DNA of 4,332 bases from a virus (lineage: Duplodnaviria; Heunggongvirae; Uroviricota; Caudoviricetes), in the IMG/VR virus record IMGVR_UViG_2531839675_000018; one strand, given 5' to 3'. Within the stretch, counting starts at the first letter, position 1. Every line of letters starts with the position of its first letter. The position numbers and the translations under genes are program-made. The notes below the pieces were generated by a model. The model was given only the letters and a program-made list of their open reading frames with translations, searched no databases and was not told the origin of the DNA. Shown piece by piece: positions 1 to 4,332 of the stretch.

Positions 1-1
1 T

Positions 2-298
2 GTATCAAAAGCCGGTGAGCGTTATCGCCGGGCTGTGGCGCTTATTGTTCGCCAGCAGCGGCTGAAATTAAGCCTGTCCGGACGGCTGGCAATAAAAATT
101 ATTGCAGAACCACCGGATAAGCGCCGCCGTGACCTGGACAACATTCTGAAAGCACCGCTGGATGCGCTGACGCATGCGGAAGTGCTCATTGATGACGAGC
201 AGTTTGATGAAATCAATATTGTGCGCGGTCAGCCTGTGCCAGGTGGACGGCTGGGCGTGAAGATTTACGAAATCAGAGGTGGTAACGATGGCGCGTGA
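2..298 (+). CDS. rusA: Holliday junction resolvase RusA, C-terminal part (5' end lies upstream of the window)
   Basis: The reading frame is open from base 2 to the TGA at 296-298. The translation (…[30 protein letters not shown]…[11 protein letters not shown]…) aligns closely with E. coli RusA as I recall it (…[30 protein letters not shown]…GGRLELTITEM…). The ORF track starts it at an internal Met at 35, but the frame continues to the window edge. Confidence 0.88.
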
Positions 299-659
299 TA
301 TCCAGATGGTTCTTGAGCGATGGGGGGCATGGGCAGCAAATAATCATGAAGATGTAACATGGCCCTCGATAGCTGCTGGTTTTAAAGGATTAATCCCGAC
401 TAAAGTGAAATCACGTCCTAAGTGTTCTGATGATGACGCCATGATAATTTGTGGTTGTATGGCACGATTAAACAAGAATAATCAGTATTTGCACGATTTG
501 TTGGTGGATTATTACGTAGGTGGAATGACATTTATGGCTCTTGCACGTAAGCATAGATGTTCTGATGGGCTTATTGGTAAAAGGCTTTATAAAGCGGAAG
601 GTATTATTGAAGGAATGCTTATGGCTCTGAATGTCCGGTTAGATATGGATATGCGGTAG
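288..659 (+). CDS. Phage late-gene antiterminator Q (QuuD / Phage_antitermQ-like), 123 aa
   Basis: The ORF lies directly after rusA, as in DLP12 and other lambdoid prophages. The N-terminus [25 protein letters not shown] resembles QuuD-type Q proteins from memory, and the Cys-rich segment ([12 protein letters not shown]) fits the family. I prefer the ATG at 288 (GAGG at 275-278, about 8 nt upstream) to the GTG at 279 used by the ORF track. The start overlaps the rusA stop by 11 nt, suggesting translational coupling. Confidence 0.75.
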
Positions 660-750
660 GGATATATAGTGATGAGGGTTATGTTTTCTGTGTTTATAAT
701 TAACATGTTTATTTTTTGATGGTCATGTATTGTGGAAGGTAGATAAAATG

Positions 751-779
751 TTGCCTGGTGAATTGAAAATATTGATAAT
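751..779 (+). promoter_or_regulatory. Candidate sigma70 promoter (possibly the phage late promoter pR' region) upstream of the CPBP gene
   Basis: TTGCCT at 751-756, a 17-nt spacer, and GATAAT at 774-779. It sits in an AT-rich intergenic region about 90 bp after the Q stop, which is where lambdoid phages place pR'/qut. This is motif matching only. Confidence 0.3.
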
Positions 780-810
780 CAATCTTCATCATTAAATAAA
801 AGGAGTGCTT

Positions 811-1629
811 ATGTGGATTGTGTTAGTACTGTCACTGTCAACTCTCAGTTGGCATAAGGTAGTGGCTTTTTCATTGTTGACGGTGTCTGTTGTCCTGGCT
901 GTGCTTAATGATATTATTGATTGGTCGGTGTTATTTTTTGTTGCTACAATCGTTTTTTTTATTATTTTGAAGTTCAACTGGAAATATAACGCCTGGGCTA
1001 AATCTATATATGAAGTTGGCATAGTTTTATCAGCCATAGCATTATTTTTCCATCTATGGCCAGGGTTTCACAATCCTGTAGTGCTAAATTCTGTTACTGT
1101 TGGCCCTCAAAGTACTCCCTATACAATGTATTTTAATTTTGATAAAGCGCTGGTGCCATTTTTGTTAGTCCTGTGTACATCTTCTTTGTTTAAAAAAGAA
1201 GTAAAATCAGAAGTGTCTTTGTGGAAGTGGGGGGCTCTGTCGCTCTCTGTTCCTCTTATCCTGTTTTTGGCTGTTTTTTTTGGTGGATTAAAGCCAGAGA
1301 TTCATTTTCCTGAGTGGTTGCCAGAGTTTATATTGGCTAATTTGTTTTTTGTGTCTCTGGCAGAGGAATCATTATTTAGAGGGTATATTCAATCACGGCT
1401 ATCAGAAGTAACGTCTCCATTGGTTGCATTAATTGTGGCGGCTTTGTTGTTTGGTTTTTATCACTATTCAGGTGGTGCTTTACTTGTATTATTTGCCACG
1501 TTATCTGGTGTTGTGTATGGATTGTCATGGATGTGGAGTGGGCGTTTGTGGGTTGCCACCCTTTTCCATTTTGGTTTGAATCTGTGTCACTTGTTATTCT
1601 TTACCTATCCATTTTTAAAACATAATTGA
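811..1629 (+). CDS. CPBP family intramembrane metalloprotease (CAAX protease / Abi, PF02517-like), polytopic membrane protein, 272 aa
   Basis: The protein is highly hydrophobic with several predicted TM helices. It carries the three CPBP signature motifs in the canonical order: EExxxR (EESLFRGY), FxxxH (FGFYH) and HxxxN (HFGLN). AGGAG at 801-805 lies 5 nt before the ATG at 811, so I prefer this start to the track's GTG at 805, which overlaps the SD. The gene is AT-rich with ATA and CTA codons. Confidence 0.8.
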   Translation: MWIVLVLSLSTLSWHKVVAFSLLTVSVVLAVLNDIIDWSVLFFVATIVFFIILKFNWKYNAWAKSIYEVGIVLSAIALFFHLWPGFHNPVVLNSVTVGPQSTPYTMYFNFDKALVPFLLVLCTSSLFKKEVKSEVSLWKWGALSLSVPLILFLAVFFGGLKPEIHFPEWLPEFILANLFFVSLAEESLFRGYIQSRLSEVTSPLVALIVAALLFGFYHYSGGALLVLFATLSGVVYGLSWMWSGRLWVATLFHFGLNLCHLLFFTYPFLKHN

Positions 1630-1770
1630 TTTTTTCTATGGTTTTAAATTTATAAGACTGAAAAATAGCAGGACGTGACATTTGCATGAAAAATATGCAC
1701 GGCAAAGCATTTACGTACGTAAAAAATCAGGTATGCTGTTAAGAGTGGTTATTTCGCCGCATAGCTTGAC

Positions 1771-1792
1771 CCCGCCTCTGAGCGGGTTTTTT
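1771..1792 (+). terminator. Rho-independent terminator candidate
   Basis: CCCGC (1771-1775), loop CTCTGA, GCGGG (1782-1786), followed by TTTTTT (1787-1792). The middle GCGGG can alternatively pair with CCCGC at 1796-1800. The stem is short (5 bp). Confidence 0.5.
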
Positions 1793-1915
1793 GTGCCCGC
1801 AAAGTAGCGCAGTGCGTTAAATGTGCTGGTAGTTATTAATACAGGTCTTTCAGCTTGCTGGCTTTTTCGACAAGAGTTATTGGTGTGTCACGTTAACCGG
1901 AAAGGGTAAAAAGAC

Positions 1916-2155
1916 ATGCTGAAACAGCAGGATATGACAGAAACCGCCAGAGTTGTGTTTGATGAATTAAGCGTCACCGAACCGGCGACGGTCGGGGAGA
2001 TTGCGCAGAATACGTACCTTTCACGCGAGCGCTGCCAGTTAATACTGACCCAGCTGGTTATGCGGGTCTGGCAGACTATCAGTTCGGTTGTTACAGACGC
2101 CTTCAGTCCTGAAGGCTTTTTTATTTGTGGTAAATGGGCGGCTGGTGGGTGTTAG
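1916..2155 (+). CDS. Small hypothetical protein (79 aa), possible winged-helix DNA-binding protein (PapI/FaeA-like pattern)
   Basis: An SD-like AAGGG lies about 9 nt before the ATG at 1916. The segment VVFDELSVTEPATVGEIAQNTYLSRERCQLILTQLV has the helix / xxTxxEIA / recognition-helix pattern of small winged-helix regulators such as PapI or FaeA. The similarity is by eye only. It sits 94 bp upstream of, and co-oriented with, the AraC-family gene. Confidence 0.45.
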   Translation: MLKQQDMTETARVVFDELSVTEPATVGEIAQNTYLSRERCQLILTQLVMRVWQTISSVVTDAFSPEGFFICGKWAAGGC

Positions 2156-2183
2156 CGGCACCTGTCAGTCCTTTGCTTATGTG

Positions 2184-2214
2184 TTGATGATAATTTACCT
2201 TTTGGGGCTATAAT
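2184..2214 (+). promoter_or_regulatory. Candidate sigma70 promoter for the AraC-family gene
   Basis: TTGATG at 2184-2189 and a perfect TATAAT at 2209-2214. The spacer is 19 nt, which is longer than optimal. It lies in an AT-rich region 36 bp upstream of the start codon. Confidence 0.3.
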
Positions 2215-2249
2215 TGAACTAACCAATTGCTAATGAAAGTAAAATTATA

Positions 2250-2963
2250 ATGGTTGTTGTCTGTTCAGTTATCATGGTTTGCTCCCCAATTAATATTTTT
2301 CTTGAAAAGGATACGTTGTCACTTAAGCCCGGCTCAGTCGTTCTGGCCACCAAATGCATCAGGGCGCTTTTCCTTATGCATTATGGCAAAGTTAAAATTT
2401 TCGATATAAACCATTCCATAGTAAGTCAATATCTGGAAATTCAGCATAAGCTGACAAGAACTCATCTGACTGACGTTCCGCTTTATCTGTCACTGGAACC
2501 CAACAACCCTGCGTTGGCTGAGGCTTTAATTACCAGCCAGAGATTTTCCGGAGATACCACGGATATGTTTCTTATGATGGCATGCCTGTCGCTGTTTGAA
2601 TCAGATGAACGGATATTATTATTTTTAAGTGGATGTTTATCCAGTATAAGTGCCAAAGTCAGGGCGATAATTCAGACAGATATATCAGCAAGCTGGACGC
2701 TTGGTGCGATTGCGTTACGCCTGCATATGAGTGAGAGTTTGTTAAAGATAAAACTGAAAAATGAAGGGCACATGTTCAGTCGCTTGTTGCTGGAAGAGCG
2801 GATGCGTGTTGCTGTCAATATGTTATGTTCCCGGCATGGATATGGACAGGCTGTAGCAGAAAAATGCGGTTATTCAAGCTGGTCCTACTTTATTTCTGTA
2901 TTTCACCGCTATTATGGCTTCCCGCCAGACAGATATGTATCCAGGCAAGGGCTTGATTATTGA
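2250..2963 (+). CDS. AraC/XylS-family transcriptional regulator, YdeO/GadX-like (prophage-encoded Psr/PatE-type regulator candidate), 237 aa
   Basis: The C-terminal region has the AraC-type HTH (…WTLGAIALRLHMSESLLKIKLK…AEKCGYSSWSYFISVFHRYYGFPPDRY). The N-terminus MVVVCSVI… and blocks such as ISESLLKxKLK and AExCGYxSxSYFI match E. coli YdeO as I recall it. By my hand translation the gene has about 7 ATA, 3 AGA, 3 AGG and 3 CGG codons in 237 codons, and it is AT-rich. Confidence 0.85.
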   Translation: MVVVCSVIMVCSPINIFLEKDTLSLKPGSVVLATKCIRALFLMHYGKVKIFDINHSIVSQYLEIQHKLTRTHLTDVPLYLSLEPNNPALAEALITSQRFSGDTTDMFLMMACLSLFESDERILLFLSGCLSSISAKVRAIIQTDISASWTLGAIALRLHMSESLLKIKLKNEGHMFSRLLLEERMRVAVNMLCSRHGYGQAVAEKCGYSSWSYFISVFHRYYGFPPDRYVSRQGLDY

Positions 2964-2991
2964 TTTTCATCTGATTATTATTTTTTGACCC

Positions 2992-3067
2992 AGCCCTTTA
3001 GCTCAGTGGTGAGAGCGAGCGACTCATAATCGCCAGGTCGCTGGTTCAAATCCAGCAAGGGCCACCA
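2992..3067 (+). tRNA. tRNA with anticodon CAU, closest to tRNA-Ile2 (ileX-like, lysidine-dependent AUA reader); ileZ-like phage tRNA
   Basis: Hand-folded cloverleaf: D-stem GCTC/GAGC, anticodon loop CT-CAT-AA, T-arm GCTGG-TTCAAAT-CCAGC, and an encoded 3' ACCA. Overall it is close to E. coli ileX as recalled. It has A:C mismatches at positions 1:72 and 27:43. A Met identity cannot be excluded from sequence alone. Confidence 0.75.
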
Positions 3068-3074
3068 TCACATA

Positions 3075-3151
3075 CCGCCATTAGCTCATCAGGAAAGAGC
3101 GCCAGCTTTCGAAGCTGGTTGCGCGGAGTTCGGGTCCCCGAAGGCGGTCCA
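3075..3151 (+). tRNA. tRNA-Arg (anticodon UCG), atypical
   Basis: Hand-folded cloverleaf: D-stem GCTC/GAGC with GG in the D-loop, a perfect anticodon stem CCAGC/GCTGG with loop TT-TCG-AA, and an encoded CCA at 3149-3151. It is atypical: C1-G72, a mismatch at 6:67, a mismatch in the T-stem, and T-loop TTCGGGT with G where A58 is expected. It could be a functional phage tRNA or a degenerate copy. Confidence 0.55.
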
Positions 3152-3164
3152 TTATCTGTATCCT

Positions 3165-3241
3165 GCGTTGTTAGCTCAGCCGGACAGAGCAATTGCCTTC
3201 TAAGCAATCGGTCACTGGTTCGAATCCAGTACAACGCGCCA
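3165..3241 (+). tRNA. tRNA-Arg (anticodon UCU; reads AGA)
   Basis: Clean cloverleaf: acceptor GCGTTGT/ACAACGC, D-stem GCTC/GAGC, perfect anticodon stem ATTGC/GCAAT with loop CT-TCT-AA, T-arm ACTGG-TTCGAAT-CCAGT, discriminator G and an encoded CCA. Confidence 0.85.
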
Positions 3242-3255
3242 CACTTATTTTCCCT

Positions 3256-3281
3256 GGCTCGCTTTTGCGGGCCTTTTTTTT
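3256..3281 (+). terminator. Rho-independent terminator immediately downstream of the tRNA cluster
   Basis: GGCTCGC (3256-3262), loop TTTT, GCGGGCC (3267-3273) giving a 7-bp stem with one G-U pair, followed by eight T residues (3274-3281). Confidence 0.7.
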
Positions 3282-3478
3282 AAATGTCTCACAATTCAGG
3301 CGGTTGACTGTTGTCTGGTTTGCGGGGAGTTTGTTAAAAGAAACTGGCATGGTGAATCCCCCTGTGCGGAGGGGCAATCAGCGAGTAGGTATATGGGATA
3401 ATCGCGGATTCAGGTGCTGGTACTGAATTCACCGGGAGGCACCCGGCACCATGCAATGGCACATAGCGCCACTCTCCA

Positions 3479-3502
3479 GCCCCTCTCCGGAGGGGCTTTC
3501 TT
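3479..3502 (+). terminator. Hairpin with weak U-tract (terminator candidate, + strand)
   Basis: GCCCCTC (3479-3485), loop TCCG, GAGGGGC (3490-3496) form a perfect 7-bp stem, followed by TTTCTT. Confidence 0.35.
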
Positions 3503-3508
3503 ATGGAC

Positions 3509-3537
3509 AAAAAAAGCCCGCGCAGGGAGACGCGGGC
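3509..3537 (-). terminator. Rho-independent terminator on the minus strand (orphan: no convincing minus-strand gene upstream of it)
   Basis: GCCCGCG (3516-3522), loop CAGGGAGA, CGCGGGC (3531-3537) form a perfect 7-bp GC stem. On the + strand it is preceded by seven A residues (3509-3515), so on the minus strand the hairpin is followed by UUUUUUU. Confidence 0.55.
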
Positions 3538-3605
3538 GGCAAGGAATAAACAACAAAACGTGAAGTAATATTTCAGCTGGCGAATAATATCCGACAGTAA
3601 TCACT

Positions 3606-3628
3606 CTGCGCAATAGCGCGGCCTTTTT
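3606..3628 (+). terminator. Hairpin plus T-run (terminator or attenuator candidate) about 100 bp upstream of the esterase gene
   Basis: CTGCGC (3606-3611), loop AATA, GCGCGG (3616-3621) form a 6-bp stem with one G-U pair, then CC and TTTTT (3624-3628). Confidence 0.35.
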
Positions 3629-3730
3629 CGTATTGCGGGCTGTTGTCTCTCTTCTGCCATTGTCCTGTAACTTCCGGATTTCAGCCCGCTCATCATTTTA
3701 CTCACAATATTATCCCGGCCGGGAGGATTC

Positions 3731-4332
3731 ATGGCATTTAAACACTACGATGTGGTCAGGGCGGCATCGCCGTCAGACCTTGCTGATGCACTTGCGCAAA
3801 AAATTCGTGAAGGATGGCAACCATACGGTGGGCCGTTTTCTTCGTATACGGATGATGGCGCAGCACTTATTCAGGCGATTGTCGCAGAAGGTGATGTGAG
3901 CACACCTGTTGTGGTGAAGCTGACAGGTGGAGAAGGTGCAGTAATCAGCGCCACCAGCGACCCCGGGTATTACTTTGTTGTGGTTCTGGCAGGGCAGTCA
4001 AACGGCATGTCGTATGGTGAAGGTCTTCCGCTGCCGGAGACATATGACCGTCCGGACCCGCGCATTAAGCAGCTGGCGCGTCGCAGTACGGTGACACCGG
4101 GCGGTGTCGCCTGTAAATATAACGACATCATTCCGGCGGACCATTGTCTGCATGATGTGCAGGACATGAGCCGCCTTAACCATCCGAAAGCGGACCTGTC
4201 AAAGGGGCAGTACGGAACCGTGGGGCAGGGGCTGCATATCGCCAAAAAATTGCTGCCGTTTATACCGGCGAATGCGGGCATTCTGCTGGTTCCGTGCTGT
4301 CGTGGTGGTTCAGCGTTCACCACCGGAGCCGA
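3731..4332 (+). CDS. DUF1737-domain / sialate O-acetylesterase (NanS-p-like, SGNH/SASA family), N-terminal part (3' end lies beyond the window)
   Basis: The frame is open from the ATG at 3731 to the window end; it is missing from the ORF track because it has no in-window stop. GGGAGG at 3721-3726 lies 4 nt before the ATG. The translation MAFKHYDVVRAASPSDLADALAQKIREGWQPYGG…YYFVVVLAGQSNGMSYGEG… contains a GQSN block typical of SASA/SGNH esterases. A gene of this type follows the tRNA/stx region in Stx phages (established knowledge). The segment is GC-rich relative to the cargo. Confidence 0.8.
   Translation, partial: MAFKHYDVVRAASPSDLADALAQKIREGWQPYGGPFSSYTDDGAALIQAIVAEGDVSTPVVVKLTGGEGAVISATSDPGYYFVVVLAGQSNGMSYGEGLPLPETYDRPDPRIKQLARRSTVTPGGVACKYNDIIPADHCLHDVQDMSRLNHPKADLSKGQYGTVGQGLHIAKKLLPFIPANAGILLVPCCRGGSAFTTGA

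Follow-up and report, generated by a model that had tools for sequence, protein, structure and literature searches.

Organization of the locus

The window considered here is a stretch of 4,332 nucleotides from the IMG/VR virus record IMGVR_UViG_2531839675_000018 (Caudoviricetes), and the subject of the study is the gene it carries for a membrane protein of the CPBP/Abi family, hereafter the CPBP gene. As the original prediction had proposed, this gene is the first open reading frame (ORF) after the antiterminator gene Q. It is followed by a homologue of the late promoter pR' of phage 933W (Table 1), an arrangement which, judging from the alignment of the two phages, would leave it outside the late transcript antiterminated by Q. 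The explanation which best accounts for the results as a whole, and to which a probability of roughly 55% is given, is that the gene would be a cargo gene expressed in the lysogen, whose product would be an active intramembrane protease with a conserved substrate in the cell envelope.

Table 1. Coordinates of the features of the window (aa, amino acids; GC, guanine plus cytosine content; TM, transmembrane helix)
Feature	Position	Strand	Remarks
RusA gene, partial	35-298		
Antiterminator Q gene, Q21/Q933 family	288-659	+	PF06530, 174.6 bits; Q21 in the PDB, 6p18, E 1e-7
Q-CPBP intergenic region, AT-rich	660-810	+	28.5% GC
Candidate sigma-70 promoter of the CPBP gene	751-779	+	TTGCCT-17 bp-GATAAT; predicted by consensus scan
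CPBP gene	811-1629	+	ATG at 811, AGGAG six bases before it; 272 aa
Conserved, family-specific extramembrane element between TM3 and TM4	1048-1218	+	aa 80-136; beta-hairpin in the AlphaFold (AF2) model
Motif 1, EESLFR (E185, E186, R190)	1363-1380	+	aa 185-190, in helix 170-198
Motif 2, FGFYH (F214, H218)	1450-1464	+	aa 214-218, at the end of helix 203-217
Motif 3, HFGLN (H253, N257)	1567-1581	+	aa 253-257, in helix 246-263
pR' homologue	1710-1737	+	TTTACG (1710-1715)-16 bp-TATGCT (1732-1737); aligned with 933W pR', NC_000924 20666-20693
Initial transcribed region, conserved	1738-1770	+	includes TAAGAGTGGTTA (1740-1751) and the equivalent of the 933W 'qut' (1751-1758)
First terminator-like hairpin after pR'	1771-1795	+	CCCGCC..GGCGGG, then a T run; found by scan, aligned with the 933W 'possible rho-independent terminator'
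TrmB-like winged-helix ORF, first after pR'	1916-2155		frameshifted; pseudogene in O157:H7 annotation
AraC-family gene	2250-2963		
Three tRNAs	2992-3241		
DUF1737/SASA esterase gene, start	3731 onward		

Family, fold and selection

The assignment to the CPBP/Abi family made in the original prediction stands, both by profile and by fold. The profile PF02517 (Rce1-like) matches the protein with 70.6 bits (E 1.4e-19, the cut-off being 22.4) over 90 of its 93 positions. The EExxxR, FxxxH and HxxxN/D motifs of the CPBP/Rce1-like family are all present, and their earlier description as intact and in the right order was correct in every detail. In an alignment of 77 homologues, E185, E186, R190, F214, H218 and H253 are invariant, with N257 conserved to at least 90%, while in the element between TM3 and TM4 the residues G85, N88, N109, D111, K112, A113, P116 and F117 are invariant as well.

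The AlphaFold model, with a predicted local distance difference test (pLDDT) score of 95.4, is that of an eight-helix integral membrane protein without a soluble domain. The three motifs are embedded in the predicted transmembrane helices of this multi-pass protein with Rce1 fold, in agreement with the CPBP topology which the original prediction had supposed. When the model was compared with solved structures, only two CPBP structures scored above noise, SpdC being the best; the protein sequence itself had no match in the PDB, so that fold comparison alone was successful. A fold search of BFVD returned weak CAAX-like matches only, with a TM-score of at most 0.47.

Comparison of the gene in the window with five prophage copies, which are 55-96% identical to it, gave ratios of nonsynonymous to synonymous substitution rates (dN/dS) of 0.12-0.26, and the gene is under purifying selection. 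Since the catalytic set is invariant and selection is purifying, the protein is probably an active protease, and not a decayed remnant, as had been supposed from the completeness of the motifs.

Two T8 tracts are found within the gene, at 953-960 and 1274-1281. Contraction of the first from T8 to T7 splits the ORF and gives rise to a cluster of proteins of 220 residues (P0004). Phase variation by means of these tracts was considered and set aside: T7 is rare, appearing in four of 35 loci, three of which have neighbouring IMG genome identifiers, which makes sequencing error no less probable an explanation than true variation.

Position of the gene relative to Q and pR'

Positions 1710-1792 of the window are homologous to positions 20666-20747 of phage 933W. 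In the GenBank record of 933W, the stretch 20666-20748 carries the annotation of pR' (TTTACG-16-TATCAT) as a putative late promoter, followed by a qut site and by a terminator marked as possible. The Q protein of the window is 79% identical to that of 933W and should thus use the same kind of site. Since the homologue of the pR'/qut/terminator cassette (1710-1795) lies 3' of the CPBP gene, the gene is placed by this alignment upstream of pR' and would not belong to the Q-antiterminated late transcript. In fact, a Q-dependent late gene stands downstream of pR' and its terminator, which is not the position of the CPBP gene, and a scan of 660-810, between Q and the gene, found no terminator-like hairpin. 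On these grounds the earlier description of the locus as a prophage late region has been abandoned.

The same order was widely observed. A Q933-type Q gene, the CPBP gene and TTTACGTACGTAAA follow one another in 41 of the 44 IMG/VR loci encoding a relative. In these 41 loci TTTACGTACGTAAA begins 78-103 bp past the CPBP stop codon, and it does so also in five further loci, namely L001 (O157:H7 PA20), L005 (96% identical), L004 (84%), L012 (62%) and L014 (59%). Where the CPBP match is full-length, unbroken and no less than 83% identical, Q and CPBP are about 146-158 bp apart, and the gene found downstream of pR' is variable: a PsrA-like regulator together with tRNAs, stx1d, a methylase or TerB. 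The pR'/qut/terminator cassette of Stx2_EH2201 starts about 38 bp past the Q stop codon, and in phiP27 an unrelated gene of 409 residues, L22 (L002 1250-2479), with a C-terminal T5orf172/MUG113 domain, is located between Q and the cassette. The presence of L22 in this slot suggests that the gap between Q and pR' is a hotspot for the insertion of cargo.

Two of the further loci show additional rearrangements. The Q-CPBP cassette of L004 (6741-7967; strain RM8082) is 87% identical and lies in an stx1d prophage, where the pR'-proximal region has been partly replaced and is overlapped by a minus-strand ORF. Downstream of the region corresponding to the window (17757-25362), the lysis cassette of L001 is inverted, its terminase genes are disrupted and insertion sequence (IS) elements are present, so that this CPBP-bearing prophage is probably defective.

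As regards the spacer between Q and the CPBP gene, both hexamers of the candidate promoter and the distance between them are kept in the aligned copies of 95% and 87% identity. A small hydrophobic ORF, MRVMFSVFIINMFIF, is also seen at 672-719, just past the Q stop codon; through an indel it measures 22-28 residues in the same two copies, and it may be meaningless.

In phages encoding Shiga toxin (Stx), the transcript between pR' and tR' is processed into the regulatory small RNA (sRNA) StxS (PMC7547250). The pR'-proximal RNA of the window (1744-1797) matched no Rfam family, and its predicted fold is marginally better than that of shuffled sequences (z -2.0).

Distribution and origin

Positions 1-3786 of the window are 99.8% identical to many O157:H7 chromosomes. 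The cassette 660-1720 is present in 572 of 5,426 complete E. coli genomes, with 547 copies at least 99% identical, and O157:H7, O145, O111 and O121 are among its carriers. In public annotation the product bears the PGAP name "CPBP family intramembrane glutamic endopeptidase" (WP_000265265.1), and PHROG 13291, of unknown function, matches it over its full length. Neither a DNA search with positions 660-1900 nor tblastn recovered a copy of the gene from 50,697 deposited phage genomes; it was seen in prophages, IMG/VR prophage calls and chromosomes only.

The GC content of the CPBP gene is 37.7%, that of RusA being 54% and that of the nanS-p-like esterase gene 56%; the prophage copies show 36-37%, compared with 48% in their flanks. 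The gene would be cargo, carried in an AT-rich insert of about 1.05 kb between the Q stop codon and pR'. No direct or inverted repeats, as the mark of a mobile element, were found flanking this insert. With respect to the features by which a moron or conversion cargo gene is recognized, it is an insert when compared with related phages and deviates in composition, its promoter is a predicted one, and a transcript has been reported from uninduced cultures.

Chromosomal homologues are at the native GC content of their genomes, the copy of Pseudomonas aeruginosa reaching 71%. Those of about 50% identity are single chromosomal genes in unrelated neighbourhoods (Providencia, Photorhabdus, Dickeya, Enterobacter and a metagenomic contig), the order being modF-CPBP-gpmA in Providencia and Photorhabdus. 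The P. aeruginosa copy, whose identity of about 60% extends over 75% of the protein, stands in the order gpmI-CPBP-M23 peptidase-S41 protease. In the P. aeruginosa locus L015 (6001-10367), the homologue immediately precedes genes for an M23 peptidase, an S41 (CtpA-type) protease and a polysaccharide deacetylase, neighbours which make a cell-wall connection of the family possible. One neighbour gene is presumably PA5132; in connection with it, a promoter insertion is reported to have suppressed the tpbA biofilm phenotype, on which no argument is based here. Members of the family are also found in Vibrio, Aeromonas, Burkholderia and Xanthomonas, and the N-terminal 168 residues alone retrieved 387 cluster representatives at E <= 1e-3, mostly of 270-300 residues.

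Proposed role and alternative explanations

The family, the fold, the motifs, the selection and the position with respect to Q and pR' are directly established, and on them a role can be proposed in which three elements are our inferences: the promoter, the activity as a protease and the kind of substrate. The CPBP gene would be a moron-type cargo gene, its enzyme having probably been captured from a stand-alone chromosomal gene family of Proteobacteria, and in the lysogen it would be driven by a sigma-70-type promoter of its own (about 751-779). Expression in the lysogen is argued from the conservation of this promoter-like sequence together with the transcript reported in uninduced cultures (PMC2654852). 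On induction, the delayed-early transcript from pR through Q would moreover include the gene as its distal end, a read-through that is to be expected from the gene order, and the transcripts of the gene would run on into the pR'/terminator cassette. The enzyme would cleave a conserved bacterial membrane-associated protein or peptide, remodelling the envelope or the secretome of the lysogen, and any STAT-1 effect on the host would be indirect. The substrate would be a conserved envelope component, and not a fast-evolving bacteriocin or phage protein, since the catalytic core and the extra loop are both conserved between Pseudomonas and the E. coli prophages and no linked partner gene is found.

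A narrower proposal can only be put forward tentatively: the protease may be a lysogenic-conversion enzyme and cleave one specific E. coli envelope or secreted protein, leading either to exclusion or immunity, or to the release or maturation of a secreted factor which blocks interferon-gamma (IFN-gamma)/STAT-1 signalling. If true, a defined substrate would for the first time be assigned to a CPBP protease of a Gram-negative phage, and the intact retention of the gene in about 10% of the complete E. coli genomes, mainly of lineages of E. coli that produce Shiga toxin (STEC), would be explained.

Several considerations weigh against the lysogen-expressed envelope protease as proposed. To our knowledge, no member of this CPBP subfamily, widespread as it is in Proteobacteria, has a demonstrated substrate, partner or activity. 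The positive-inside charge bias in the 77 homologues assigns the active site to neither face of the membrane. The promoter at 751-779 is a consensus match only, and detection of the transcript in cultures by reverse transcription PCR (RT-PCR) could stem from spontaneous induction. Placement relative to pR' is not universal either: in the prophages L018 and L061, which have a lambda-type Q (PF03589), a CPBP gene of 55-58% identity is preceded by a promoter-plus-terminator cassette and followed by a holin gene, and there it would be a late gene. Moreover, the pR' assignment leans on homology to features which the 933W record calls 'putative', and, as the functional tR' is found 258 nt from PR' in Stx phages (PMC7547250), the effective terminator may be another than the hairpin at 1771-1795. 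The scan also located a stronger terminator-like site at 2099-2116.

Among the alternatives, it is possible, although doubtful, that the protease guards its lysogen in that it degrades or blocks a bacteriocin or microcin inserting into the membrane, or else some component of a phage attempting superinfection. Bacteriocin self-immunity is established for some CPBP/Abi proteins of lactic acid bacteria (LAB), prophage cargo expressed in lysogens is often protective, and the T5orf172/MUG113-domain protein in the corresponding slot of phiP27 suggests a cargo hotspot. Nevertheless, no defence model of PADLOC-DB v2 matched the protein at E <= 0.1, and in the approximately ten contexts inspected, prophage and chromosomal, there was neither an adjoining bacteriocin, peptide-export or toxin gene nor any linkage to a bacteriocin structural or export locus. 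Furthermore, the gene has evolved slowly, as is seen from the low dN/dS given above and from the identity of about 60% which the E. coli prophage and P. aeruginosa chromosomal copies share; this is unlike typical arms-race immunity genes. The bacteriocin immunity and abortive infection functions that the original prediction had brought forward are for these reasons disfavoured.

Modulation of lysis at the membrane, for example through control of a cell-wall hydrolase or the processing of a spanin, holin or antiholin, is unlikely. The CPBP gene does always lie between Q and the lysis cassette, in the prophages of lambda-Q type it separates a pR'-like promoter-plus-terminator cassette from the holin gene, the best structural match, SpdC, is the partner of a peptidoglycan hydrolase (SagB), and the P. 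aeruginosa homologue adjoins the two peptidase genes mentioned. In the Q933-type arrangement, however, the gene is upstream of pR' and variable cargo stands between it and the lysis genes; in addition, most relatives are chromosomal and without phage context, and the transcript is present without induction.

A further alternative is a non-catalytic membrane scaffold or regulator acting through protein-protein contacts in the manner of SpdC or Abx1. This is quite improbable, being hard to reconcile with residues of the three catalytic motifs that are invariant or nearly so among the homologues, a conservation difficult to explain without catalysis.

Finally, the proposal of a 2009 paper that the protein is a secreted virulence protease which acts directly on host cells and blocks IFN-gamma/STAT-1 signalling is extremely improbable, since release from the bacterium is implausible for an eight-helix integral membrane protein, complementation in that study was only partial with no induction in the presence of T84 cells, and the deletion, directly upstream of pR' and the PsrA-like regulator, may have had polar or cis effects, the former of which the partial complementation could reflect. 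The same laboratory later described the STAT-1-inhibiting factor as a secreted protein still to be identified (PMC3256229).

Other features of the window and significance

The TrmB-like ORF, frameshifted in the window, is intact (65 residues) in phiP27, Stx2_EH2201 and strain R1. The first tRNA (2992-3067) is read as Met (CAT) by ARAGORN and as tRNA-Ile (ileZ) in RefSeq and phage records; together with the two tRNA-Arg genes which follow, it forms a trio that is typical of Stx phages. The sRNA family STnc100 of Rfam is strongly matched on the plus strand (3318-3508; 138 bits, the gathering score being 47), in the interval from the tRNA cluster to the esterase gene.

The CPBP gene had already been annotated and studied, and the feature is real and not new as a finding. 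What is added here is its placement upstream of pR', the conserved Q-CPBP-pR' module, a structural model of high confidence and the chromosomal family that would be its source. Moreover, a reason is given for a renewed look at the one phenotype that has been published, loss of STAT-1 inhibition. The O-island 50 prophage, in which CPBP lies beside the regulator PsrA and the late-promoter switch, is reportedly needed for persistence in an ovine colonisation model. When the STAT-1 phenotype is tested again, two aspects should be taken into account: expression of a gene upstream of pR' would be independent of Q, and a deletion at CPBP may disturb pR' or psrA.

Comparison with known systems

The type II CAAX prenyl endopeptidase Rce1 of Methanococcus maripaludis (4CAD) is about 16% identical to the CPBP protein, which differs from it by an extra conserved loop of 57 residues between TM3 and TM4; we know of no prenylated CAAX substrates in E. 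coli. With SpdC/LyrA of Staphylococcus aureus (6U0O) the identity is 14%. SpdC has its role as a partner to SagB, a hydrolase, and is not a demonstrated protease; the CPBP protein keeps every catalytic residue.

The Abi/CPBP self-immunity proteins of LAB (PlnI, SkkI and similar) fall into the same Pfam family and, as small membrane proteins that stand alone, need the protease motifs for their function. Their genes, however, sit in bacteriocin loci, while the CPBP gene and its homologues have no bacteriocin neighbour in the contexts inspected.

With the cargo that lambdoid phages carry between Q and the lysis genes, such as stx and L22 of phiP27, the CPBP gene shares the variable region next to Q. 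L22 occupies exactly the same Q-pR' slot, whereas the stx genes are downstream of pR'/tR' and dependent on Q, the CPBP gene being located upstream of pR'.
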